Origin: a virus
Lineage: Duplodnaviria; Caudoviricetes
IMG/VR virus record: IMGVR_UViG_3300024272_002379
DNA length: 64,000 nt
Direction: 5' to 3' (one strand)
Shown in pieces: positions 311 through 16,494 of this stretch (its first letter is position 1; every line of letters begins with the position of its first letter). The position numbers and the translations under genes are program-made. Under the pieces are notes generated by a model. It saw nothing but the letters and a program-made list of their open reading frames with translations, was not told the DNA's origin and did not search any database.

Positions 311-685
311 GGGCCTGTAATGGTATCGACAGGGGCATGAAAGTTATGAGTTCGTCCGAGTGGTGACGCTATCACCAACTTTAAAATTAAACGCAAACAG
401 ACCAATGTTAGCGGCTGCCTAGTTGCAGCTACCAAAACACAGTAAGATATTGCTGGTAACTGTTGAGGTTCAAAAACTAGCATAGTATAAGAAGTTCTCT
501 GTATACAACTTAGTGAACAGAGTGGTGGAGCAAGTAAGAAACCTTACTAGCCTAGTATCTCAGGTCTGGAAGACGATAGCCAGTGAGTGAAAGCTGAGAT
601 GAAATAACTCATTTAAGTTCGTAACGACGTAAAGACTTATAATGAATAATGTTTTTGGACACGGGTTCGACTCCCGTCAGGTCCA
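311..685 (+). ncRNA. ssrA: tmRNA, tag ANRPMLAAA* (393-422)
   Basis: 5' GGGCCTG pairs with 3' CAGGTCC-A with G3.U70; T-arm ACGGG-TTCGACT-CCCGT; GCA resume codon and Ala-rich tag. Confidence 0.95.
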
Positions 686-713
686 CTCTATATTACTATA
701 AGGAGACACAAAT

Positions 714-1499
714 ATGAAATTTCAAAAGTTTTTGGTAACTGCTCTTCTGTTAACTTTAGTTTTATATTCTACATATTATTGGAATGAACAAAGTAAAACA
801 GAAATCATACAAGCCGTTAACCAGTCTAGTAATGAAATATTAGAAAAAGAAAATAAAGTTGAAACCATAGTAGAAACTGTGTACATAGACAGAAAAGATA
901 GAGACCATGAGAATTACTCTATTCTTCAACTTGATGTAAAAAGTATTTCTCAGCTTCCAGAGCTTCCAACTGGATGCGAAGTTACATCATTAGCTATTGT
1001 TTTAAACTACTTAGGATATGAGGCAGATAAAGAAATTCTTGCTGATACATATTTACCTAAAGGACCAATTGGAGAGACCCATCCCGACGTGGCTTTTATA
1101 GGTAATCCTAGAGATGCTTATGCTTATGGTGCTAACGCACCTGTATTGGTTAAAACTGCAAATGATTATTTAGCAGATATGAAATCCGACTATAAAGCTC
1201 ACAATATTACTGGTACAGATTTTAAAGACTTACTTAGTTATGTAAATGATGGTTATCCAGTAATGATATGGGAAACAATTGGTTTTCTTGAACGTTATCC
1301 ATCTACAAAATGGGTTATTGACAACAGAGAGTTTCAGTGGTATGCTAATTTCCATTGTATGGTGTTAATTGGTTATACAGATAGTGACTATATCTTATTA
1401 GACCCTCTGGATGAAAAGAATGAAGTTCATTTTGTAAATAAAGAACTTGTTGAAAAACGATATGACGAGCTTGCAAAGCAGGCTATTGTTATATATTAG
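714..1499 (+). CDS. C39-like peptidase (YvpB/C39_2 type), N-terminal membrane anchor
   Basis: QLPELPTGCEVTSL, HCMVLIGY, DP motifs. Confidence 0.85.
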   Translation: MKFQKFLVTALLLTLVLYSTYYWNEQSKTEIIQAVNQSSNEILEKENKVETIVETVYIDRKDRDHENYSILQLDVKSISQLPELPTGCEVTSLAIVLNYLGYEADKEILADTYLPKGPIGETHPDVAFIGNPRDAYAYGANAPVLVKTANDYLADMKSDYKAHNITGTDFKDLLSYVNDGYPVMIWETIGFLERYPSTKWVIDNREFQWYANFHCMVLIGYTDSDYILLDPLDEKNEVHFVNKELVEKRYDELAKQAIVIY

Positions 1500-1559
1500 G
1501 TCATAATTAAGACCATCCTTTTGTAAAAAGATTTTTATACGGGTCTCATCAACCCGTAT

Positions 1560-1634
1560 CGGAATGTAGTTCAGCTTGGCTAGAACGCTTGTTTTGGGAA
1601 CAAGAGGTCGCAGGTTCGAATCCTGTCATTCCGA
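1560..1634 (+). tRNA. tRNA-Pro(TGG)
   Basis: cloverleaf; CTTGT-TTTGGGA-ACAAG. Confidence 0.95.
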
Positions 1635-1843
1635 CTAAGACTTTTTGTTACCTCTAAGGCATTCTCTTATACGGGTTCCGTATGGGGGATATAAGGAGCG
1701 AGGCGAACCTGAATCTTCCAGTCTCTAAAGAAGAATGAAGTGGCGTTTATGGTTATTATTTCCTTTGTACGACAACAAAGAAATTTAATTCTTTTTCATT
1801 TTTTGGTGTTCCTTTAGGAATAAAGCTGTCTAACGACAGCTAA

Positions 1844-1923
<80 letters not shown>

Positions 1924-2010
1924 TTTTCAAAACGCCATAGTTTTGGAAAACCTCGTTTGTGTAAAAAATCATCGAACCTGGCAGTGTATAGGTTAACTGC
2001 CACCCCACAT

Positions 2011-2083
2011 GCCCCAATTGCACAGTTGGTAGTGCGACTGATTTGTAATCAGTAGGTCGGCGGTTCGAGTCCGTCTTGGGGCT
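2011..2083 (+). tRNA. tRNA-Thr(TGT)
   Basis: ACTGA-TTTGTAA-TCAGT. Confidence 0.95.
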
Positions 2084-2520
2084 TTGTTACATAAGCATTT
2101 ATGCCCTAAGTAGCAGATAGACATAAATGTGTAACAAAACGATGGTCTGCTATAATCGGTAAAGTTGTTCTATCCTGTATAGAGGTTATTGGGTCCGATT
2201 CAGGTAAAACTAACGAAACAGGACGATTTATTGGCGTACTTTAGTGAAAGCAGAGTCGAGTAACTAAAGAGAAAATCAATACCCAGTTCATCATTCTTTC
2301 TGGGTTACGTGAGACGTTAGTATGGTCTCGCCGTAAAGATTAAGCTGTGATATAGTATCAAAGCTATATTGCGGAATCAGGTAGGATATTTATATCAGAC
2401 CTAACGTATACATAAGTTAAAACGAAGGTAATCCAACAGTGAACCGCAGTACAGAAGGTGGGCCTAGTGTTTGTAATACAAAGTTAGACCGTGCGGGGCT
2501 AATGCATGTTTCTTATGATA
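2084..2520 (+). ncRNA. large structured RNA between tRNAs (possibly ROOL-like)
   Basis: ORF-free, many hairpins (TTGTTACA/TGTAACAA, ACCCAG/CTGGGT, GAGAC/GTCTC), tRNA-island context; family not verified. Confidence 0.45.
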
Positions 2521-2528
2521 CGGTATAT

Positions 2529-2611
2529 GCAGCGTTGTGATAATGGTAGTCGGGCGGTCTTGAAAACCGTTGTGTCGAAAGGCATTGGGAGTTCAAGTCT
2601 CTCACGCTGCG
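2529..2611 (+). tRNA. tRNA-Ser(TGA)
   Basis: GCGGT-CTTGAAA-ACCGT, long variable arm. Confidence 0.93.
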
Positions 2612-2750
2612 TTTGGCTAAGCATAGGTAGCCGTACCCAGATGACGAAACGACAGTCGTCATATAACAAGCCTATTGCAGTTTATCATGTACTAAACATG
2701 AAGGCTCTTCTGTTTTAGATGCCAGTCTGTGCAGGAGGGCCGAAGTCTCT

Positions 2751-2839
2751 GGAGTGTTACTCAAGTTGGTGAAGAGGGAACCCTGCTAAGGTTCTAGCGT
2801 CCATTATGGGCGGCGAAGGTTCGAGTCCTTCACACTCCG
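2751..2839 (+). tRNA. tRNA-Ser(GCT)
   Basis: GAACC-CTGCTAA-GGTTC, long variable arm. Confidence 0.93.
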
Positions 2840-3105
2840 TTAAGGCTGAAGTGCAATGCTAAATTTTTATGTAATAGCACGCCCGTAAAAGACGTTGAGG
2901 TTGAGGACAATGAGTATGGAAGTGGCCTTTCGAGGCCTAACACGAAAGTTTGACAATAAGTACCGAATGCATAAGATTGACCCATCTAAATGCTACGTCA
3001 GTGGGAGGAACTTATGTAAATACGTTGATACTACGAAGAAGTATCTGCTTGGAAAACGAATAGGTCATTCCCGTTTCTAGCATTTCTGTACGAAAACAGA
3101 ATTAA

Positions 3106-3199
3106 CGGAAGGTAGCCTAGTGGCTAGGCTTGTTGCGAAAAAACGGGTGAAAGCAACTGGAAACGCCGTTTGACGTGAGTTCGAATCTCACTCTTCCGT
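3106..3199 (+). ncRNA. tRNA-like RNA with pseudoknot replacing the anticodon arm
   Basis: acceptor CGGAAGG/TCTTCCG, D-arm, T-arm GTGAG-TTCGAAT-CTCAC; GTTGC/GCAAC crossing AAACGG/CCGTTT. Confidence 0.65.
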
Positions 3200-3379
3200 C
3201 TATATCATCAATATCAACTTACAACAGCCATGGTAATGTTGTGAGAGCGTCATAGGAAGACGTTCTTCCTACTTCAAAGAGACTGGAGTATGCAACAATA
3301 GCTGATGAGGCTCATGACCCCATAAATTGCAGGATAAATAAACAGCGTCTGCTGAAAGATGACAAAGATGATATTATTT

Positions 3380-3453
3380 GGACCATTAGCTCAGTTGGTC
3401 AGAGCGGTCGGCTCATAACCGATTGGTCCTTGGTTCGAGTCCAAGATGGTCCA
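3380..3453 (+). tRNA. tRNA-CAT, probably Ile2 (lysidine type)
   Basis: GTCGG-CTCATAA-CCGAT; GGACC acceptor like Firmicute tRNA-Ile2. Confidence 0.88.
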
Positions 3454-3503
3454 CTAAGAACTCAATACGCCTCTTAACAATGCGGACCACGTTGAGTCAA
3501 AAA

Positions 3504-3628
3504 CCTGGGGGAGCTGTGGCAAGCAGCCATCTGATAAATGGTGAGTTAAAATATGAAGATACTTTATATCGGCATATTACTATGGTGAAAACCCATTCAT
3601 TAACTAGGTTCGATTCCTGGCTCCAGGA
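3504..3628 (+). tRNA. atypical tRNA-Ile(GAT) with ~61-nt variable-region insertion
   Basis: acceptor CCTGGGG/CTCCAGG, anticodon arm GCCAT-CTGATAA-ATGGT, T-arm CTAGG-TTCGATT-CCTGG. Confidence 0.6.
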
Positions 3629-3783
3629 CTATAATGCCTAACGGCATTAATATGGAATAGAAACCCCAATCAATTCCGTGTCAAACGAATTTCAAGACTA
3701 CCAGGGGGAACCTAACAAGGCTGTTATTTGTGCTGCTTGTGGCGTTAGGCTGGTAGAAGTAACCTACCCCAATTACAATTAAA

Positions 3784-4488
3784 TATTGTGCTTTAAAATG
3801 CACACATATATCCTGGTGAAGATTGTTTAATCAACATGCCAGGGCATATCTACAGTAAGTATGAAATAATATTCGTTACAGGCTTAGCCAGTATGTTTAT
3901 TATGTAATACTGAGACGTATGAGAACATGGGATACTTTGTTCGGTAGTGCGTTTAACGGATATAAATCAAGTCCTAAGGACGTGGTGAAGTTCTGTTATG
4001 AAGAAGGGAACCCTTCAAACGATTGATATGGCGTAACTTATACATAACGATTAGTGTGACATGCTTTTGGTGAACAGAATAGACGCTCTCTGTGAGAGAA
4101 TAACCCTGGGAACTGGATGAGCTGGTAACTCATTACAGATGGCAGGGAATTACCAAACAAGTTCATTCGCTGTGATACCGAGACAACTCGGAGTATAACG
4201 AAAGCATAAGTCGCAAGTAGCCTAAGGCGATAAAAGAGAATATAACAGTGATAAGATGAATGAATGTATCATCAAAACATATTCTGAACGATTCGGGTGA
4301 AAGCTGGAGGTGCCAATCCTTCATGGGTTTTAGACTGATAAAAGGCTGTTAACCTTTATCAGTTGGGGCAAGAAGTATGGAAGTCATGAGCCATGCTCAG
4401 ACTTGTCTCCCCATTCGCATAATAAATCACAATGTATATTTTATAAGATGAATAAAAGTCTATATGGTGTGTGTTTTAAAGCACAATA
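3784..4488 (+). ncRNA. GOLLD-like giant structured RNA
   Basis: 22-bp terminal helix 3784-3805/4467-4488 (2 G.U), ~705 nt, no ORF, in phage tRNA cluster; 3' half resembles GOLLD as I recall it. Confidence 0.7.
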
Positions 4489-4507
4489 CTAACAGCAACG
4501 GAAACTA

Positions 4508-4536
4508 TTGACATTCCATTGCTGTTTTTGTATAAT
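4508..4536 (+). promoter_or_regulatory. sigma-A promoter
   Basis: TTGACA-17-TATAAT, 12 nt before tRNA-Tyr. Confidence 0.85.
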
Positions 4537-4548
4537 TACAATCAATTC

Positions 4549-4632
4549 GGGTAGGTAGACCGTAGTTGGTAGCGGGCCAGACTGTAAATCTGGTGCCTTC
4601 GGGCTCCGTTAGTTCGATTCTGACCCTGCCCA
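4549..4632 (+). tRNA. tRNA-Tyr(GTA)
   Basis: CCAGA-CTGTAAA-TCTGG. Confidence 0.93.
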
Positions 4633-4819
4633 TTTACATCAAGGACGGTTGGTGACAATTTATTTGTCAAAGGGATAAGGGCAATACATGTTACCGCTTA
4701 TCGTGTAGATGTGTAGTGCAAAGTGTATTGGTGTGAGATTGTTTCCATATTAGAGAAACAGCCAATCTTAAATGTGAAATATCTAATTAGAGAAGGATAA
4801 AGTAACAGCTTTGTATTAT

Positions 4820-4891
4820 AGAATATTAGCTTTAACGGCAAAAGCACACGGCTGATAACCGTGGTCAGCGGTTCGACTCCGCTATATTCTG
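4820..4891 (+). tRNA. tRNA-Ile(GAT)
   Basis: CACGG-CTGATAA-CCGTG; AU-rich acceptor AGAATAT/ATATTCT. Confidence 0.85.
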
Positions 4892-5112
4892 TTCTTTGTG
4901 AGTGTGACTACTTACAATGACCTAAAACGGCTCGTAAACTTGTAGAAAGGGCAGGCCGACGGGTAAGAGTGCCGCAAGTACCAAATAACCCTGAGGGTAA
5001 AACTGGGTTCGCCTCTTTTTGAGCACGGGATGCAGAAAAGAATAGACATCTCTCAAAGTTTAGGTAAATAAACAGCTTAGGTTGGTAACCTCTTAGTCAG
5101 AAATAACCATAT

Positions 5113-5185
5113 TGGGTATTAGCTCAGTCGGCAGAGCACATGGCTGTTAACCATGGTGTCGTAGGTTCGAGCCCTACATACCCAG
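5113..5185 (+). tRNA. tRNA-Asn(GTT)
   Basis: CATGG-CTGTTAA-CCATG. Confidence 0.95.
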
Positions 5186-5487
5186 TTTAAATCAAACTGA
5201 AACGAGTCAGGCCCAATCGCTCGATTAAGTATGTGAGGAAAGTGAGGTTGGTTGCCAGCTTACTCAAGACTTCGTGTGCTTGAGGACAGCCCATTTATGG
5301 GTCCCCACTGGTTGTAAAATGTCTTCGCATTTAAAGTGGTGTTGTAAAATACATTCCGCTTAATCTTTAGTTTGGTTTTATTTGGAGAGACATGTTGTAG
5401 CGGTTTCTACGTATGTACAAAGGCTCTGGACAAGTCTTATTTTTTGAAACAGCAAGCGTGCGATTATCAGGTTAGTCTCTCCAGTAT

Positions 5488-5561
5488 AGCGGGGTAGAGC
5501 AGTCAGGCAGCTCGCAAGGCTCATAACCTTGAGGTCATAGGTTCAAATCCTATCCCCGCCA
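5488..5561 (+). tRNA. tRNA-Met(CAT), initiator-like
   Basis: 1:72 A/C mismatch, GCGGGG acceptor, CAAGG-CTCATAA-CCTTG. Confidence 0.88.
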
Positions 5562-5636
5562 CTCATGAAAACAAGTGATTGTTTTCTGATATCAGGCATT
5601 TATCGGGTTCGAATAGATGTAGGTATTGTTTTTAAT

Positions 5637-6530: not shown

Positions 6531-6999
6531 AGAAATACAAAGCAAAATAGAAATGTGTAGCAAATTGCTTATCATATGGTTTGGACAGGAACGAGACGGT
6601 GTAGATTTTTCCAATCATGATAAAGAGATTAAACAGTTATTCATCTCTCAGGTTTTGCTAAAAAGATTTGAAGTATTTGGTATTAACATTGTTATACCTG
6701 ACCCTTTATTAGCTATCTTATCATGTTGTACGGATAGCAATCCAGGTCAATCTCAGGTTATCCTTAAAGATTTACTGAATCATATTAAGAAAATAAAAGG
6801 TCCAATTCCAGATGGTTATGTTATTCAAAGTATGGACTTCAGTTTGTGCTTCCCTATGAATTTTCCTATTACTGAAATTCCAGAAGTTAATGCTAAATAT
6901 GAATCTATGTGGATTGGTCAGAAAATTGAAAGAACTGGTACTTTTTCATCGGATAATTTATGCGATACTCCTGAATGGTGGAAGGAGGTAATGGAATGA
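6523..6999 (+). CDS. hypothetical protein
   Basis: ORF with RBS, coupled. Confidence 0.7.
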   Translation: MNKEIQSKIEMCSKLLIIWFGQERDGVDFSNHDKEIKQLFISQVLLKRFEVFGINIVIPDPLLAILSCCTDSNPGQSQVILKDLLNHIKKIKGPIPDGYVIQSMDFSLCFPMNFPITEIPEVNAKYESMWIGQKIERTGTFSSDNLCDTPEWWKEVME

Positions 7000-7787: not shown

Positions 7788-8543
7788 ATGAAAAAACATC
7801 TTTATACAGTACTGACCTTTATGGTCATTCTCGTAATATGGTACAATGCATCATTGATTGCAAATCCATTATTCATTCCTAATCCACTAGCAGTGTGGAA
7901 TGATTTTAAAATACTTGTATCAGATGGCTCTATCTTTATTCATCTTATTTATACCTTCAGGAGAATTATGGTTGCTACATGCTTATCAGGACTTGTCGCA
8001 CTACCGTTAGGGTTATTGGTGCGTAATTTCAAAATAGCAAAAGCAACCATTTATCCTGTAATTATGCTATTACGTTATATACCTGTAACAGCATTCTATC
8101 CATTGCTTATTATGTGGGTTGGTATTGAAGAGGAAATGAAAGTAGCTTTTCTGTTTATCGCATGTTTTGTTTACATGCTCCCATCAGTAGTTCTTGCTCT
8201 TGATGAAGTAAACGACCAGCTTATTGATACAGGATTGACTATTGGAATGAGTAAATTACAAACTATCACCAGAATTCAATTACCATCTACATTACCTAGT
8301 ATTATGAACAGTTTTGTTATGATGGTTGGTATTGGCTGGACATATTGTGCAGTAGTAGAAACAATCAATGCCAAATATGGATTAGGCTACGTAATCCATC
8401 AGGCAACCGCTAGAGGTAAAACTGATTTGGTATTCATGGCTATTATTGCCATTATGATTGTTAGCTTTGTGTTTGATAACACTTGTAAATTTTTAATCCA
8501 TAAGGTATTTAAATGGAGGTACGTTAATGATAAAACTAAATAA
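7788..8543 (+). CDS. ABC transporter permease (NitT/TauT/SsuC family)
   Basis: multi-TM, EAA-like loop, VVE..GLGY. Confidence 0.9.
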   Translation: MKKHLYTVLTFMVILVIWYNASLIANPLFIPNPLAVWNDFKILVSDGSIFIHLIYTFRRIMVATCLSGLVALPLGLLVRNFKIAKATIYPVIMLLRYIPVTAFYPLLIMWVGIEEEMKVAFLFIACFVYMLPSVVLALDEVNDQLIDTGLTIGMSKLQTITRIQLPSTLPSIMNSFVMMVGIGWTYCAVVETINAKYGLGYVIHQATARGKTDLVFMAIIAIMIVSFVFDNTCKFLIHKVFKWRYVNDKTK

Positions 8544-9123
8544 TGTATCAATAGGCTACAATTGTCTTGCAATTCGGAAAGATTTAAATTATAATTTCCA
8601 TCAAGGTAAGATTTATGGAATCTTAGGAGAATCAGGTTGTGGCAAGACAACATTGTTAAAGACCATTGCTGGATTAATAAGACCCGTGAAAGGCTCAATA
8701 AGATGTGATATTCCTAAAAGAGAAATTTACATGATGCACCAGTCTTACACATGTTTTGATTGGTTATCATGCTTAGATAATATCTTGATAACGGAACGCA
8801 TCAAACATCATAAAATTACGGACGAAATTAGAAATAAAGCAATGGAAATGCTTAAGGCTGTTGGTCTTGAAGACCATGCAGACAAATACCCAACACAGTT
8901 ATCTGGCGGACAGAGACAAAGATTAGCGTTAGCACGCACGCTATTCACTTCACCTAGACTGATTTTAATGGATGAACCATTATCAGCATTAGATGAAGAA
9001 ACCCGTACAGCAATGCAGGATTTAATCCTGGATATACATAAGAAAACCTATAACACAATCATCATGATTACACATAGCAAATCCGAAGCGGATAAAATGT
9101 GTGATGAGATTATTAACTTTTAA
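8527..9123 (+). CDS. ABC transporter ATPase
   Basis: GESGCGKT, LSGGQ, DEPLSALD, H-loop. Confidence 0.95.
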   Translation: MIKLNNVSIGYNCLAIRKDLNYNFHQGKIYGILGESGCGKTTLLKTIAGLIRPVKGSIRCDIPKREIYMMHQSYTCFDWLSCLDNILITERIKHHKITDEIRNKAMEMLKAVGLEDHADKYPTQLSGGQRQRLALARTLFTSPRLILMDEPLSALDEETRTAMQDLILDIHKKTYNTIIMITHSKSEADKMCDEIINF

Positions 9124-9137
9124 GGGAGGACAAAACA

Positions 9138-9686
9138 ATGGCTAGTTTTCTTGAAAGAATGGGCTTAGTTGAAAAAACTGAAGAAGAAACATTCGACTAC
9201 GAACCAACTGAATATGAAGTAGAAACAGATGAATCTGTTGATGTAAACCTTGAAGGAGTATCCAAAGAAAATTTACAGACAAATCTGATTTCTGAAATTT
9301 ACAATGCGAATGGACTGTCTGATATGTCTAATTCTATTTTTAAAGCAGAAGAAATCAGCAAGAGTTTACCAGCTACAATGACAACTGAAGCAAAGAAAGC
9401 TTCTGTAGTAGGTATTCTTGGTTCATTCGGTCTTACAGTCGAAGGATTAATCGAAGATGCATCCACAAGAGCATTTATGCTCGGAGGAGCAGCAACACGT
9501 ATTACAGAAGATAATACAGCAGTTATTAACGCAAAGAAATTAGAAATCGAAGAAGCGAAAAAGCTTATCGAACAGTGCGAAAAGACAATCGCAGAACATG
9601 AACAGGTTATCGCTACATCCATGGATTTAATCGAGGATGAAGTAAAGCGTATCACTGGTCTTAAAGAATTTTTAGGAGGTAAGTAA
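9138..9686 (+). CDS. coiled-coil protein of ABC/PspA module
   Basis: ORF in operon, C-terminal heptads. Confidence 0.75.
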   Translation: MASFLERMGLVEKTEEETFDYEPTEYEVETDESVDVNLEGVSKENLQTNLISEIYNANGLSDMSNSIFKAEEISKSLPATMTTEAKKASVVGILGSFGLTVEGLIEDASTRAFMLGGAATRITEDNTAVINAKKLEIEEAKKLIEQCEKTIAEHEQVIATSMDLIEDEVKRITGLKEFLGGK

Positions 9687-9688
9687 TT

Positions 9689-10435
9689 ATGATTACTTTA
9701 ACACAGATGATTTATGCTACCATAATCATTATTGTGGTAGTGGCATTAATTGTTTCAGGCAAATTACGTGCATTAGGTAAGGCGTTTCTTAATCTTTTCG
9801 TGGAAGATTTAGCGGCATCTCCAGAAGGAGCTGAGGCTTTATTTAACCAGAAAATTGAAGAAGTTGAAGATAAGTATCGTAAGGCTAACGATGTTTTCTC
9901 AAGAATCGCTGGTGAACGTACAAACTGCAAGAAACAGGTAGAGAATTTAAACGCTAGATTAAAAAGAGTAGAGTCTGTTTGTGAACAGTTAGCTCAGGCT
10001 CAGGATGTAGAAAGTTTAAAAATTAAAGCTTCTGAACGTGCAGAAATCGTAGAAGAAATTAAGCTTCATGAAGAAACATTAGTAACACTTGAAGCTGCAT
10101 TAAAAGACGCAACTGAAGCAAGAAATGCTTGCGAAGAAAATCTTAACGAGCTGAGAAAACAGAAGAAACAGGTTGTTACAAAGATGAAACGTAACAGAGA
10201 TATGAAGGCAGTTTATGATGACCTTAATGGCATCGGTGCTGGTGACCATACTTCTAAATTACTTGATAAAGTAATTGAAAGAGGTACTGATTTAAACAAT
10301 CTCGTTACAGGTTCCAAAGAGGCTTATGATTCTAAGACCTCTACAAAATCAAGAAAGATTGACCAGAAACTCAGTGCTTCTGAAAACGATGCATATGTTC
10401 AAAGTTTACTGGGCAAGTACAGCAAAAAGTCATAA
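9689..10435 (+). CDS. PspA/IM30-like coiled-coil protein with N-terminal TM
   Basis: TM helix followed by a long coiled coil of PspA-like length. Confidence 0.6.
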   Translation: MITLTQMIYATIIIIVVVALIVSGKLRALGKAFLNLFVEDLAASPEGAEALFNQKIEEVEDKYRKANDVFSRIAGERTNCKKQVENLNARLKRVESVCEQLAQAQDVESLKIKASERAEIVEEIKLHEETLVTLEAALKDATEARNACEENLNELRKQKKQVVTKMKRNRDMKAVYDDLNGIGAGDHTSKLLDKVIERGTDLNNLVTGSKEAYDSKTSTKSRKIDQKLSASENDAYVQSLLGKYSKKS

Positions 10436-10453
10436 CATCAGGAGGGAATTATT

Positions 10454-12049
10454 ATGAAACAGTACAGAATTACAGGTAAGGCAAAAATTTTAATCATTGT
10501 CTTTGTTATTGTAGTATTGGCAGGACTTATCGGCGGTGGCTTAAAAACAGGCCTTATCAAAAACGACATCAAAGATGGTGGTAGTAATACAGTAGTATCT
10601 CAGGACAGCAATACAGGTTCTAACAAAAAAGAAGAATCTAATGCTACAGTAAAACCAGAAGTAACAGATACAATTAACCTCTCATTAGATGAGTGGATTG
10701 GTTGGAAATCTATTGTAGATGCTAATGGTGATTTAACAACAGATGCAGAAGAAGCTTTTGCTTTAATGGGTATCAATGTAAACATTCATGTTATGAATGA
10801 TGCCACACAGTCAAGTAATGCATTAATCAAAGGTGATTTGGATGCTGCTGGTTATACAATCAACAGAACTGCATTCTTATCTTCTAAGTTTAAAAATGCT
10901 GGCGTAGATGTTGTAATGCCATTCATTACTAACTATTCTAACGGCGGTGACGGTATTATCGCAAAATCAAGTATCAAATCAGTTAATGACTTAGTTGGTG
11001 CTAAAATCGGTGTACCAGAATTCTCTGAGGCTCAGACATTAGTTGTTTGGTTTGTAAACAATTCTAACTTAACTCAGGCAGAAAAAGATACAATTATCGA
11101 CAATCTTATTATGTTTGCAACTCCAGATGAAGCCGCTAAAGCGTTCTTCTCAGGACAGGTTGATGTAGCTGCTACATGGGAACCATATTTAACACAGGCT
11201 GAAAATATGACAGATTGCCATATCTTATTTAGTACAGCAAGTTCTTCAAATCTTGTAATGGATGGTATCTTATTCCGTAAGGATTTCGTAGATGCTAATC
11301 CAGAAACTGTAGAAAAATTCATTATGGCTTGTTTAATGGCTGCTGATAAATATGAAACAGATTTCGATGCAATCAGAAAAGTTATGCCTATGTATTCTAC
11401 AATGTCTGATGAAGACATTAAGGCAAACTGTGTTGCTGCTAAGTTAACAACATGGAAAGATAATGCTGATTTATTAAACGGAACTGCTAAGATTATGTAC
11501 ACAGACATGTGTGAAGTATGGCAGTCTATCGGTGAAGAAGTCGATGCAAGTATCGTAGATACTTTATTTGATGATAAATACATTCAGAATATCGCTTTTA
11601 ATTTCAGCAGTACAGATTCATCTTATGATACAGGTAAAACTCAGGTAACAGAAGAGAATAAACAGATTATTGCTGATACACAGGCATTACTTGGCGGTAC
11701 AGCATCTGTAACATTCGAGAAGAATACAGCTAAATTCTCTGATTCTGCCGCTGCTTCTGCTGAACTTAATAAGTTTATTGAAATGGCAAAAGTACTTGAC
11801 GGTGCTATTATCGAGATTGCTGGTAATACAGACCCAAATCCTAACAGCGACCCTCTCGATGAGTACAATAAGAAATTGTCTTCTCAGAGAGCTGAAGCTG
11901 TTAAGAATTACTTCATCATGAACGGTATTTCTGCTGATAGAATTGTTACGGTTGGTAACGGTTCAAGCAATCCTATCGTTGATAACGATACAGAAGAGCA
12001 TCGTGCAATGAATCGTCGTACAGACGTATCATTTAAAATTATTGAATAA
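10454..12049 (+). CDS. ABC substrate-binding protein fused to OmpA/MotB-like peptidoglycan-binding domain
   Basis: SNGGDGIIA, DVAATWEPY; C-terminal GNTD..YNKKLSSQRAEAV..NRR. Confidence 0.88.
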   Translation: MKQYRITGKAKILIIVFVIVVLAGLIGGGLKTGLIKNDIKDGGSNTVVSQDSNTGSNKKEESNATVKPEVTDTINLSLDEWIGWKSIVDANGDLTTDAEEAFALMGINVNIHVMNDATQSSNALIKGDLDAAGYTINRTAFLSSKFKNAGVDVVMPFITNYSNGGDGIIAKSSIKSVNDLVGAKIGVPEFSEAQTLVVWFVNNSNLTQAEKDTIIDNLIMFATPDEAAKAFFSGQVDVAATWEPYLTQAENMTDCHILFSTASSSNLVMDGILFRKDFVDANPETVEKFIMACLMAADKYETDFDAIRKVMPMYSTMSDEDIKANCVAAKLTTWKDNADLLNGTAKIMYTDMCEVWQSIGEEVDASIVDTLFDDKYIQNIAFNFSSTDSSYDTGKTQVTEENKQIIADTQALLGGTASVTFEKNTAKFSDSAAASAELNKFIEMAKVLDGAIIEIAGNTDPNPNSDPLDEYNKKLSSQRAEAVKNYFIMNGISADRIVTVGNGSSNPIVDNDTEEHRAMNRRTDVSFKIIE

Positions 12050-12062
12050 TTGAATATTGTGT

Positions 12063-12093
12063 AAGACCCTAGTTAATAGCTAGGGTCTTTTTT
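12063..12093 (+). terminator. intrinsic terminator
   Basis: AAGACCCTAG..CTAGGGTCTT then T-run. Confidence 0.75.
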
Positions 12094-12110
12094 ATTGGAG
12101 GTGTGGTGGA

Positions 12111-12533
12111 TTGATAAAGAAAACTCAACCATATGAAAAGTTAGTGGATTATGTAAAGGACAATCCACAAAAAGGATTAACCATTCCACATACAGAAATT
12201 GAAACAATTATCGGAATTCCTTACAAAAGTAGCAGATACTCATATCATGTTACTAAGGCAAACGATAAATTAACACAGGTTTCATTAAGACTGGAACCAA
12301 TTAACGGATTTGGTTACCGTATCATTCAGGATAATCAGTATGTTGACAGTATGCGTAAATCGTACAATATGGCAGTTAGAAACATTCAAAAAGCAAAATT
12401 CATTGCTGACAATACTGATGTTACAACTTTAAATGTTGGCGAACATATGGAATGGCATACTGTATCGCTAAAGATTAAGAACGCTCAAAGTGCATTAGAT
12501 GCGATTTTACCAAAACCAACAAATATCCCATAG
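12111..12533 (+). CDS. putative winged-helix protein, companion of RAMP gene
   Basis: helix-turn-helix then LEPINGFGYRI wing; TTG start with GGAGG. Confidence 0.6.
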   Translation: MIKKTQPYEKLVDYVKDNPQKGLTIPHTEIETIIGIPYKSSRYSYHVTKANDKLTQVSLRLEPINGFGYRIIQDNQYVDSMRKSYNMAVRNIQKAKFIADNTDVTTLNVGEHMEWHTVSLKIKNAQSALDAILPKPTNIP

Positions 12534-12543
12534 GAGGGAACAA

Positions 12544-13005
12544 ATGGCAAACGAATATAATTATGATGCTGCGATAAAAGTAATTCTTGACGCATTTACA
12601 GTAGGAACAAATGTTACATATGAACAATTAGAAGTTGCAATGGGATTAAAATCTCCTATTACATCAGCAACTCCTGCAAACAATTGTGCTCTTTCAAAAC
12701 TTAAACGTCGTCTTAAAGAAGAACATGGCTTAGTTATGAAAAGTGCCAATGTAAAAGGTGGCGAAAACAATTACTATGTCATTTCTAAAGTTAAAGATAA
12801 TGTAATTAGCAAGAAAGAATCCAATTCAGATAAGGATTCTAATTATGAAGCTTTATCAAAAAACAATCAGAAACTCTACATGGAATTGGAAAATGCAAAA
12901 GCTGCTAACGCAGCATTACAGGAAAAATATATTGCATTGCAGGAAAAAGAACTGGAGTATATTACAATCATCCAGTCTTTAATGGCTCTTGCAGGCATCG
13001 CATAG
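12544..13005 (+). CDS. putative winged-helix plus coiled-coil protein
   Basis: VTYEQLEVAMGL..LKRRLKEEHGL..YYVI; start moved to RBS-supported 12544. Confidence 0.55.
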   Translation: MANEYNYDAAIKVILDAFTVGTNVTYEQLEVAMGLKSPITSATPANNCALSKLKRRLKEEHGLVMKSANVKGGENNYYVISKVKDNVISKKESNSDKDSNYEALSKNNQKLYMELENAKAANAALQEKYIALQEKELEYITIIQSLMALAGIA

Positions 13006-13015
13006 GAGGTATTCT

Positions 13016-13516
13016 ATGGCAATAGTAGGAGAATGGATACCACAGTCTGGCTACAAAGGTAAAGCAGATGCAAACAAAGTAGCTTACGAAATTGAAACCA
13101 TTGGAATCAGTAACACTACGGATGAGTTTAATACTCAGGAAATGGTAGATTATGCTCGTAATAATCCAGGGTCAGAATTACATAAGTTATTTGAATGGAA
13201 CGATAGCGTTGCTGCTGAAGCATATCGAAATCAGCAAGCACGAGATATTTTACGTTTCTTAAAAATTACTGTTGTTGATGATACGACTCAGACTAAAAAT
13301 CCTACATTAGTTAGGTATTTTGTTAGTACTGGTAATCATGATGGTATGTATAAGAAAACAGAACCTATATTCCAGAATGCTTCAGAAGCAGATAGGGTAT
13401 TAGAAAATATGAGAAGAGACGCTGAAAACTTTATTAATAGATACAAAGCATATCTCAGTCTCAATCCAAATTTATCTAACGCTATTACAGCTTTACAGGC
13501 AGTTGTTAATCCTTAA
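13016..13516 (+). CDS. conserved phage protein adjacent to RAMP gene
   Basis: VDYAR..SELHKLFEWNDSVAAEAYRNQQAR motif; RBS at 13016. Confidence 0.7.
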   Translation: MAIVGEWIPQSGYKGKADANKVAYEIETIGISNTTDEFNTQEMVDYARNNPGSELHKLFEWNDSVAAEAYRNQQARDILRFLKITVVDDTTQTKNPTLVRYFVSTGNHDGMYKKTEPIFQNASEADRVLENMRRDAENFINRYKAYLSLNPNLSNAITALQAVVNP

Positions 13517-13523
13517 GTTTTAT

Positions 13524-14238
13524 ACCTTGCTGTATATATATTGGCTTTAATTGGTCAATGAAAATACAACAAATTAGGACAAACCAATCCAGCAGAGAAC
13601 ATTATCAGCATACTACAGGACATAAGCAGGATAGGACATCACAAACGGCTCGTTAGAGCCTTTATATATACAGCAAGGTTGTTGTATAAAGCTCATTATA
13701 GGACAGAATAGCTCATAGCAGATGATATCATTAAAATACATAATAACACAAAGTCTTTTATAATCTCTTATATGTATATCGACTTTAAATGCTTAGAGTC
13801 AATATACATGTAAGAGAGGACAGGACAACTCAGTGCATTTCTACCACAACAAATGACAATGTATAACAAAGCAGAGGGGCGATTTTCGCCCCATTTTTAT
13901 GAATACATATATTGGCTTTAATGGTCAATAGAACAATACAGTGCAGAGCAGTATATAATAGCTCAGTTAAGAATACCATAGCATAACACAAATGGCTCTT
14001 AGAGCCTTTATATGTGTTCATAAATAGATATATTGACTTTAGCAGTCAATAAGCTCAAAAGACCGTAGAACAGGACAGCTCATTACAAAGTAGTTCAGGT
14101 TAAAACAAGCGAAAACAAAGGCTCGTTAGAGTCAATGTATGTGTTTATGAAACACAAAAGCACAAAGACAGCATAATACATGTCAGTGCAACATAGGATA
14201 TTACAAATCATTACAAAATCCTATTGAAAATCAATAGG
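13524..14238 (+). repeat. array of six 5-nt-periodic (NYA-NN)n tracts in repeated hairpin scaffolds; putative guide-RNA array
   Basis: invariant A every 5 nt over 80 units; repeated scaffold arms ATATYGRCTTTA...TTAGAGYC inside long inverted repeats. Confidence 0.9.
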
Positions 14239-14256
14239 TAGAAAGCGAGACGCATT

Positions 14257-14913
14257 ATGGCAGCTAAAGTTACAGAAGAAGTAAAAGAGATTCAGAACAA
14301 AATTAATTTCGCTACAGCAACAATTACAATTGTTGGCGATAGTGACCTTATTCTTAACAAAATGAGAGATAGCACTACTCAGGAACTTGCAGATAAACAG
14401 GAAGGTAAAGTACAGGGTACAAAGAAACCTGTAAACATGTACGAGCATCTTGTTGGTTCCATTCATTGGCTCAAGGGAGAAGAAACAGACTATACAGAAG
14501 AAGGCTGGTTGAATGCATTAAAGAATAATGTTCCAGGTTATCCATCTTCAGGTATGAAGAAAGCATTATGTGATGCTGTTGTTCGTGTATTAGGCGAAAC
14601 ATATAGCACAAAGTTCAATGCTAACGTACAGATTCTTAATAGCTTCTTACCAATCGAATTTGGTTCAAGTGCTTATGATAAATCATTATTTAGCCCTCAG
14701 AAGGGTAGTCCAGTTCTTTGTTACAGAAATGTATTCAGAGATTGGAAAACAACATTTACAATTAAATATATTCCAGACAATTATTCATTAGACCGTATCA
14801 TCGAAGTTATTAACTGTGCAGGTTTTGCATGTGGTATCGGTAGCCACAGACCATCAAGTAAAGGTGGCTCCAACGGTATGTTCCACGTAGAATCCGTTAT
14901 GGAAGTAGTTTAA
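14257..14913 (+). CDS. stand-alone Cas7/RAMP-like RNA-binding protein
   Basis: beta1 ITIVGDSDLILN, PSSGMKKAL, YRNVFRDW, C-terminal Gly loop AGFACGIGSHRPSSKGGSNGMF. Confidence 0.8.
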   Translation: MAAKVTEEVKEIQNKINFATATITIVGDSDLILNKMRDSTTQELADKQEGKVQGTKKPVNMYEHLVGSIHWLKGEETDYTEEGWLNALKNNVPGYPSSGMKKALCDAVVRVLGETYSTKFNANVQILNSFLPIEFGSSAYDKSLFSPQKGSPVLCYRNVFRDWKTTFTIKYIPDNYSLDRIIEVINCAGFACGIGSHRPSSKGGSNGMFHVESVMEVV

Positions 14914-14921
14914 GTACATAT

Positions 14922-15650
14922 GGGAAGGAAAACCCTATAATAAACCGCTAAGATGAAGGCAGACCAAGGCTGTTGCAGGACCTGAAAAGGCGTTCGCACT
15001 TAGATGTAATAAAAGCGAAGATTAGGAGACTCATATGCAAAACCCTGACATATGACATGGAGAAATACCGTTGAATGCAACCAGGTAGTTAAGATTTTAT
15101 ACCGACAGAAACGACCGTTACTGCGTAGCTCAAAGTCGGAAGTTTACTTAATTGAAATAAAAAACAAATAGAGAGCAAAGGTAACAGCTAAGATATTACG
15201 ACCTCATGGGTGCCAACCACGCACACGAATCCGTATTAAATCTGACGTAGAGGCAAGTTCACTTAGATGCAATCAAGAACTTTAGCGTGGGTGCTTCACA
15301 ACTGCATAAATATTTTGAGAAGGAAAACTCGCTATCAAACCGCTAGGTTATGGGTCCCTTACCATGTTTAAAGACCTTGAACTCCTAGAGCGTAAGCATT
15401 TGTAACAAAAGTTTTAAAATTGAATAGTGGCTTTAGTGGTTTGATGGAAACCATCTCCCAGGAGGGGACTGGTGCGAATGAACCCAGGAGACAGGACTAA
15501 CTCCTTACACCAGCGAGTCTTGAATTAGACCGCTCGGAGAAACGATGCCCAGCTAAGTTTTCAGAGGGATAAGGTATGCTTTGCAGGAAACCCTCGGTGC
15601 TGTTTGCCTATTTCTCCTACCAGGCTTCTTAGATGCAATAAAAAGACCGA
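14922..15650 (+). ncRNA. array of five related pseudoknot-like RNA units
   Basis: repeated GCTAAG...CTTAGATGYAAT with variable 36-70 nt inserts. Confidence 0.65.
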
Positions 15651-15899: not shown

Positions 15900-15912
15900 A
15901 TATAACACATAT

Positions 15913-15984
15913 AGGGCTATCGCCAAGCGGTAAGGCACAGGATTTTGATTCCTGCATCCGTTGGTTCGAATCCAACTAGCCCTG
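15913..15984 (+). tRNA. tRNA-Gln(TTG)
   Basis: CAGGA-TTTTGAT-TCCTG. Confidence 0.93.
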
Positions 15985-16069
15985 TTCATAGTGGTCAGTG
16001 TTAATGCACACTGTAAATAAAGTAGCCTCTCGATTGGCTTTCAATGGTCAGCTTTAACCACTATAACAT

Positions 16070-16244
16070 ACACGGGTTGTCTGAGCTGGTGAGAGATGAT
16101 ATCTTATCAATAGGCCAGTGAACTAGGTGCCAACCACTCTGATTAGAGTAGGGACATGTGAAAGTTATAAGGGAAGGAACGCTGATACGTAGCATTGTTT
16201 TGGTAACTTGATGAGTAGTAGAGGTTCGATTCCTTGCCCGTGTG
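16070..16244 (+). ncRNA. tRNA-like RNA with ~100-nt insert in place of anticodon arm
   Basis: ACACGGGT/GCCCGTGT acceptor, GAGG-TTCGATT-CCTT T-arm, CTTATCAA/TTGATGAG helix. Confidence 0.55.
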
Positions 16245-16259
16245 TTAAAGACCAAGCAA

Positions 16260-16332
16260 AGGTAAGTAGCTCAGTTGGGAGAGCACCCTGCATTGAGCGG
16301 GGTCGTCGCAGGTTCGAGTCCTGCCTTGTCTT
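16260..16332 (+). tRNA. atypical tRNA (loop CATTGAG, nominal TTG; identity uncertain)
   Basis: canonical D/T arms, A at position 33, two G.U in acceptor. Confidence 0.6.
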
Positions 16333-16494
16333 GATATAAGCTGAAGTCTTGAAGCCAAGTATAGTCATGCGGTGGGTGGATATTTACATTAGGTCCAATG
16401 AGATTAGACTTTAGTATCTATCAAATAGAACTGTTGACTAAAAATAATGCCCAGCAAAAACCATATGCTGGGCTATTTTATTGGAGGAAATTAT

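Follow-up and report, generated by a model that had tools for sequence, protein, structure and literature searches.

The three small genes packed ahead of a guide-like repeat array in a ~213-kb uncultivated phage probably form part of a VIPR system or accompany one; ORF3 would be its cognate accessory gene, ORF1 a Vap1-like gene and ORF2 the companion of ORF1. The window analysed here is a stretch of 64,000 nt from IMG/VR record IMGVR_UViG_3300024272_002379 (Duplodnaviria; Caudoviricetes), part of this phage; the phage has a G+C content of 34%, and every gene of the window lies on the + strand. VIPR (Viral Interference Programmable Repeat) is a phage-borne, CRISPR-like, RNA-guided DNA silencer described in 2026 (bioRxiv 10.64898/2026.04.26.720920, 10.64898/2026.04.26.720927, 10.64898/2026.10.15.759431). 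A VIPR locus is defined by vipr, the vrRNAs and vap accessory genes (bioRxiv 10.64898/2026.04.26.720920). Vipr protomers polymerise along a vrRNA built of pentamer repeats; recognition of double-stranded DNA follows a gapped code, and the outcome is transcriptional repression of competing mobile elements (2026 VIPR preprints). The locus in the window is a further member of this already described system, with some unusual features, and not a new kind of system. A sequence-only reading had placed the three genes beside a RAMP-like gene and a guide array, as accessory subunits, regulators or guide-writing factors. Their association with a RAMP-based RNA-guided system outside CRISPR is supported, and the interpretation is largely right for ORF3 and plausible for ORF1.

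The unit opens at an intrinsic terminator (12063..12089, + strand) with a 12-bp stem, a 3-nt loop and a T run, which closes the upstream OmpA/NMT1 gene. It is followed on the same strand by ORF1 (12111..12533; 140 aa, TTG start), ORF2 (12544..13005; 153 aa from ATG) and ORF3 (13016..13516; 166 aa from ATG). All three have their own GGAGG-type ribosome-binding site, and each gene stands 10 nt from the next. The scaffold of the array begins 8 nt past the ORF3 stop, and the non-coding array itself occupies ~740 nt (13524..14256, + strand), ending directly before vipr (14257..14913, + strand; 218 aa). The tightly packed trio between a terminator and the array was thus recovered in full, with all three ORFs and both flanks in place. 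Further upstream, an ABC-transporter-like module was observed (7788-12049), made up of a permease, an ATPase, a PspA-like protein and a 531-aa protein in which an NMT1-type substrate-binding domain is fused to an OmpA domain. This gene set is unusual for a phage and is kept directly upstream of the VIPR core in related ~210-kb phages. The left end of the window (within 311-5562) carries a tmRNA, ten tRNAs and a ROOL RNA (3788-4481, 231 bits), and two tRNA-Gln genes lie in a 1.5-kb non-coding stretch 3' of vipr (15912-16333), giving twelve tRNAs in all. A blastn search of the region against cultured phages returned tRNA matches only.

The RAMP gene at 14257-14913 is identified as a Vipr protein from profile comparison and a structural model. 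For the 218-aa protein, a profile built from 59 homologues matched one solved chain, PDB 36pp_D, entitled 'SUSP1 Vipr protein', at E 1.4e-11. Alignment of the window Vipr family with the SUSP1-like Vipr by hhalign gave E 7e-15 (probability 98%), and both proteins fall in phrog_4652. An AF2 model of the window protein (pLDDT 83) matched Cmr4, Csm3 and the type VII Cas7 (Foldseek E 2e-7, probability 1.00), and a Pfam search with the 59 homologues returned no match. The window protein is only remotely related to type II Vipr, the match spanning only the C-terminal ~65 residues. Since the downstream gene matches the SUSP1 Vipr by profile and Cas7/Csm3 by model, the locus was assigned to VIPR. The resemblance to the published systems also includes the single Cas7-like gene flanked by long non-coding tracts of 5-nt periodicity with structured tails, the small accessory genes devoid of a nuclease and the phage-borne setting. 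The Cas7 backbones of CRISPR types III and VII, with their small subunits (Csm2/Cmr5-like), share the RAMP filament on a guide RNA and the small helical proteins, and the Vipr model matches Csm3/Cmr4. However, ORF1, ORF2 and ORF3 showed no similarity to any Cas small subunit, the locus has no Cas10, Cas1, Cas2 or repeat-spacer array, and the target of VIPR is double-stranded DNA, read through the gapped code.

On the protein side the locus is a VIPR system, and on the RNA side it would be a variant. Published vrRNA pentamers consist of a constant GGY and a variable NN (2026 VIPR preprints); tandem YNNGG repeats are the published vrRNA signature, and vrRNAs are known from sequencing and from co-purification with Vipr (2026 VIPR preprints). 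The array of the window contains six tracts with lag-5 and lag-10 periodicity. In a pool of 92 pentamers, A occupies position 2 in 84 and a pyrimidine (C or T) position 1 in 71, so that the constant part reads Y-A (Y-A-N-N-N / N-Y-A-N-N) and not GGY. The authors of the system list the pentamer variants NNNGG, YNNNG and NNNNG, and the Y-A type is absent from that list. No YNNGG run of at least 4 units was found on either strand of the window, and none in close relatives. Terminator-like sites are enriched in 11900-15100, with 10 sites against 1.8 expected from shuffles. Between 13647 and 14006, GGCTC-loop-GAGCC hairpins followed by TTTATAT recur and look like the conserved 3' tails of guide units. 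We therefore describe the array, with its about six pentamer-periodic tracts and hairpin tails, as predicted vrRNA-like guide genes of a non-canonical type. The window further departs from published VIPR loci in having three candidate accessory genes and not the 'typical' one, and in its host, an uncultivated phage of ~213 kb with 34% G+C.

Canonical repeats are common elsewhere in the family. In most loci sampled through vipr, YNNGG runs lie between or beside vipr and the ORF3 homologue, on the coding strand only. In the Gordonia phage Pipp, gp43 (L013:6602-6871; 89 aa, annotated 'hypothetical') is placed between gp42, a Vipr homologue, and gp44, an ORF3 homologue; as it overlaps four YNNGG runs (6630-6810) and has no PHROG match, gp43 is probably a vrRNA array misannotated as a gene. 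The VIPR core of Mycobacterium phage Saal (genus Cheoctovirus) comprises genes 51-52 (L014:4588-6037). Its five YNNGG runs, of up to 11 units, lie just ahead of gp51, the Vipr homologue, and reach into the annotated start of that gene; gp52 (phrog_15946) comes next. Some two dozen further records of Mycobacterium phages were matched by the same Vipr query, and all the genes are annotated as hypothetical. Four small phage contigs (L001, L004, L005 and L011) showed no canonical YNNGG runs.

By its sequence family and genomic neighbourhood, ORF3 is the near-obligate companion of the Vipr proteins of this clade, and it appears to be a Vap-type accessory gene. It carries the LHxxFEWNDxxAAExYRxxQAR motif (LHKLFEWNDSVAAEAYRNQQAR), the most conserved segment of its family. 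Across 96 diverse homologues, W61, A66 and R71 are invariant, while H56, F59, D63, E68, Q74 and A75 are nearly so. The family is large, with 12,381 clusters at 50% identity (E up to 1e-3); ORF3 itself matches phrog_15946 at E 2.4e-14, and 96/96 family members match it as well. The association of this family with phage RAMP-like genes, noted in the sequence-only reading, proved correct and very strong. The vipr-side sample comprised 95 loci, each with a Vipr homologue: 80 were obtained by scanning IMG/VR with a vipr profile and 15 had been collected earlier, some of them via ORF3 itself. Of these loci, 90 contain an ORF3 homologue on the strand of vipr within about 2 kb. Conversely, a Vipr homologue is present in 77 of the 80 loci sampled by the ORF3 motif. 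Most of the misses (6/8) were cut off by the locus end, namely 3 of the 5 on the vipr side and 3 of the 3 on the ORF3 side. The next commonest real gene family in the neighbourhood reaches 19/95 loci, and the pair alone is conserved. The order ORF3, array, vipr is seen in the window and in 56 of the 77 motif-sampled loci, and the order vipr, array, ORF3 in most vipr-sampled loci. The pair also occurs in cultured, unrelated phages, as gp42/gp44 of Gordonia phage Pipp and gp51/gp52 of Mycobacterium phage Saal, all annotated as hypothetical. Saal gp52 and Pipp gp44, both of phrog_15946, resemble ORF3 in their ~150-aa size, the FEW[DN]D..AAE..R..QA segment and the adjacency to vipr and array, but the gene order is inverted and the identity is about 30%.

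The AF2 model of ORF3 is confident (pLDDT 91.6). Its residues 14-118, covering the N-terminal half, resemble winged-helix domains with modest VIA Z scores of 5.4-6.2 (I73R, 2od5, FoxP, YceH), and residues 121-166 form a C-terminal helical hairpin. Foldseek found no PDB match below E 1e-3, and against BFVD only uncharacterised members of the family were recovered. A sequence-profile search of solved structures gave nothing below E 0.19, and the 96 homologues showed no Pfam match and no integrase, nuclease or helicase domain. The assignment of ORF3 as a Vap1 was considered and ruled out, as hhalign against the SUSP1-like and LESphi2 Vap1 gave E 0.3-0.5, which is no similarity. A co-fold of Vipr (A4) and ORF3 (A3) scored 0.00 in two runs, a result that counts neither for nor against binding. 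With a pI of 5.2 for ORF3 and a median of 5.3, the family is acidic. This does not fit the published generalisation that the products of vap genes interact with DNA. Vap proteins strengthen silencing or are required for it (2026 VIPR preprints). Given its acidity, ORF3 would more probably dock on the filament of Vipr and vrRNA, or on the DNA-bound form of it, than bind free DNA by itself.

Six vap families have been described over seven VIPR types (bioRxiv 10.64898/2026.04.26.720920). Those of types II, VI and VII are predicted DNA binders, winged-helix-like or HTH-like, and those of types III-V are nucleases or helicases (bioRxiv 10.64898/2026.04.26.720920). The Vap1 family was described for type II Vipr; Vap1 enhances the restriction of λ (bioRxiv 10.64898/2026.04.26.720920), and deletion of vap1 lowers the plaquing of SUSP1 on a satellite lysogen about 10^4-fold (bioRxiv 10.64898/2026.10.15.759431). 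It is with this family that ORF1 can plausibly be connected, as a distant homologue accompanying a Vipr only remotely related to type II. The relationship is drawn from shared membership in phrog_5926, from hhalign and hmmsearch comparisons and from a common basic charge. ORF1 of the window matches phrog_5926 at E 5e-4, and 26/27 members of its family match it (best 2.6e-8) and almost no other family. The same PHROG is matched by the SUSP1-like Vap1 (E 1.4e-75) and by P21_8 of Pseudomonas phage LESphi2 (4e-31), the gene after vipr in that phage, which is 27% identical to the SUSP1-like Vap1. Alignment of the ORF1 family with the SUSP1-like Vap1 by hhalign gave E 3.9e-4 over 104 colinear columns (probability 36% against the single sequence), and hmmsearch gave 9.5e-5. 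The pI is 9.35 for ORF1 and 9.9 for the SUSP1-type Vap1.

Compared with the type II Vap1 of Escherichia phage SUSP1 and of a Pseudomonas fulva prophage, ORF1 is of similar length (140 against 146-163 aa) and aligns colinearly over its full length, including a G-x-G-Y-R-[IV] segment. The identity, however, is about 21% (hhalign), and the accompanying Vipr is of a different clade. The position also differs: vap1 of SUSP1 directly follows vipr, whereas ORF1 of the window lies 1.7 kb upstream of it, two genes and the array away. In a 208-kb relative (L003), the ORF1 homologue is found directly downstream of vipr, as in SUSP1. The 45 homologues of ORF1, at 40-99% identity, were found only in the ~210-kb phage clade, and tblastn against cultured phages gave no match.

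ORF2 has only 6 homologues. It comes after ORF1 in the window, likewise in L098, L099, L097 and L003/L017, and in every complete relative locus with ORF1. Residues 1-90 of its Atlas model align with the winged-helix domains of Rep3, MAGE and Trans_reg_C at TM 0.4-0.55, and its C-terminal third is a conserved coiled coil. No match to cultured phages was obtained by tblastn, and comparison with Vap1 showed no similarity, nor was there a tie to any published vap. ORF2 is best described as a companion of ORF1 inside this phage clade; its candidate role in VIPR derives solely from the link to ORF1 and is unproven. The sequence-only reading had seen two winged-helix proteins in the trio. Such features are weak in ORF2 and also show in the N-terminal half of ORF3 (VIA Z about 6). 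ORF1 is a homologue of Vap1, whose type is called predicted DNA-binding by the authors.

The three genes are not one conserved unit. No significant family similarity was detected between ORF1 and ORF2, ORF2 and ORF3, or ORF1 and ORF3, and their arrangement varies among relatives. In L098 the order is that of the window; in L003 it is ORF3, vipr, ORF1, ORF2; in L097, an ABC-transporter module stands between the core and ORF1-ORF2, which are upstream of that module; and in L009 and L010 the OmpA/NMT1 gene is followed directly by ORF3, array and vipr. In L002, L009 and L010, no copy of ORF1 or ORF2 was seen at distances of up to about 5 kb from the core. Because ORF1 and ORF2 shift or are missing near the core among relatives, we define the core as ORF3, array and vipr. 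ORF1 and ORF2 are a mobile pair, usually but not always beside the core and on either side of it. The gene-neighbourhood co-occurrence proposed as a check thus gave a divided answer, with ORF3 universally linked to vipr and the linkage of ORF1 and ORF2 confined to the clade. The 66.7-kb relative L098 (7206-8658) was also observed to carry a longer Vipr homologue (255 aa). After it comes an additional gene of 220 aa, without a match to any of the four profiles, which may be a further accessory.

This mobility gives some weight to the reading in which only ORF3 belongs to VIPR, and ORF1 and ORF2 are early-gene DNA-binding regulators that have become neighbours by chance in some genomes. We regard it as possible but clearly the less probable account. 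Consistent with it, the two genes are restricted to this phage clade; L002 and L009/L010 lack them near the core, L097 carries them at a distance from it, and ORF1 of the window is itself only weakly similar to Vap1. However, nearly the whole ORF1 family matches the Vap1 family and almost nothing else, and the pair adjoins the core in two arrangements, preceding ORF3 in the window and L098 but following vipr in L003, which drift alone would not be expected to keep. A more specific proposal can be put forward tentatively, namely that one Vipr with non-GGY guides is served by two accessory lineages, an obligate, acidic, winged-helix-like ORF3 that would dock on the filament and a mobile ORF1-ORF2 cassette related to the type II accessory gene.

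It is very improbable that ORF3 and the RAMP protein form a replication or recombination module, such as an origin-binding pair, with the repeat gap as an iteron origin. In L001, L004, L005 and L011 the vipr-ORF3 pair is followed closely by genes for AAA_24 (Sak4-like), ERCC4 nuclease and primase-helicase, a position that places it at the head of a replication/recombination module, and the weak Foldseek matches of ORF3 include RepE-type initiators. Nevertheless, AAA_24 is present in 19/95 and ERCC4 in 14/95 loci, while only the vipr-ORF3 pair is conserved; the RAMP protein matches solved Vipr and Cas7 folds; and the gaps carry the published vrRNA signature on the coding strand only. On these grounds a replication or origin module was disfavoured. 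Equally remote is the idea that the trio are guide-acquisition ('writing') factors, a counterpart of Cas1-Cas2, for which the sole point is the position beside the array, the origin of new vrRNAs being still unexplained in the literature: nothing like Cas1, Cas2, an integrase or a polymerase was found in ORF1-3, these 140-166-aa, winged-helix-like or coiled-coil proteins have no integrase, nuclease, polymerase or reverse-transcriptase domain, and the published Vap1 acts in interference and not in acquisition.

In the preferred reading, in which the trio belongs to or travels with the VIPR system, ORF3 would be the cognate accessory of this Vipr clade, probably co-transcribed with the array, and would dock on the Vipr-vrRNA filament or its DNA-bound state rather than on free DNA, as its acidity suggests. 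ORF1, as a basic Vap1-like protein and presumably a DNA binder, would reinforce silencing at the target, in the manner of Vap1 in phage SUSP1. ORF2, a winged-helix-like coiled-coil protein, might work together with ORF1. Searches of ORF1-3 against Pfam (E up to 1) returned chance-level matches only, with no nuclease, integrase, helicase or other family, in agreement with the earlier observation that no nuclease motif is evident. As the trio includes neither a nuclease nor an adaptation enzyme, the system would silence and not cut. The earlier suggestion to this effect fits the published VIPR types with DNA-binder vaps.

VIPR was described only months ago, and the mode of action of its accessory proteins is named by its authors as an open question. 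In this respect, phrog_15946 is a very large uncharacterised phage family (>12,000 clusters, no Pfam, no solved structure) that is almost always tied to vipr, and its acidity argues against a simple DNA-binder role. The presence of ORF1 indicates that a Vap1-like gene may accompany a Vipr of another clade. If the two accessory lineages do serve one Vipr, the accessory modules of VIPR would be exchangeable between types and would act at separable steps. With its three closely packed genes and its unusual guides, this phage offers a natural test bed for separating these accessory functions.
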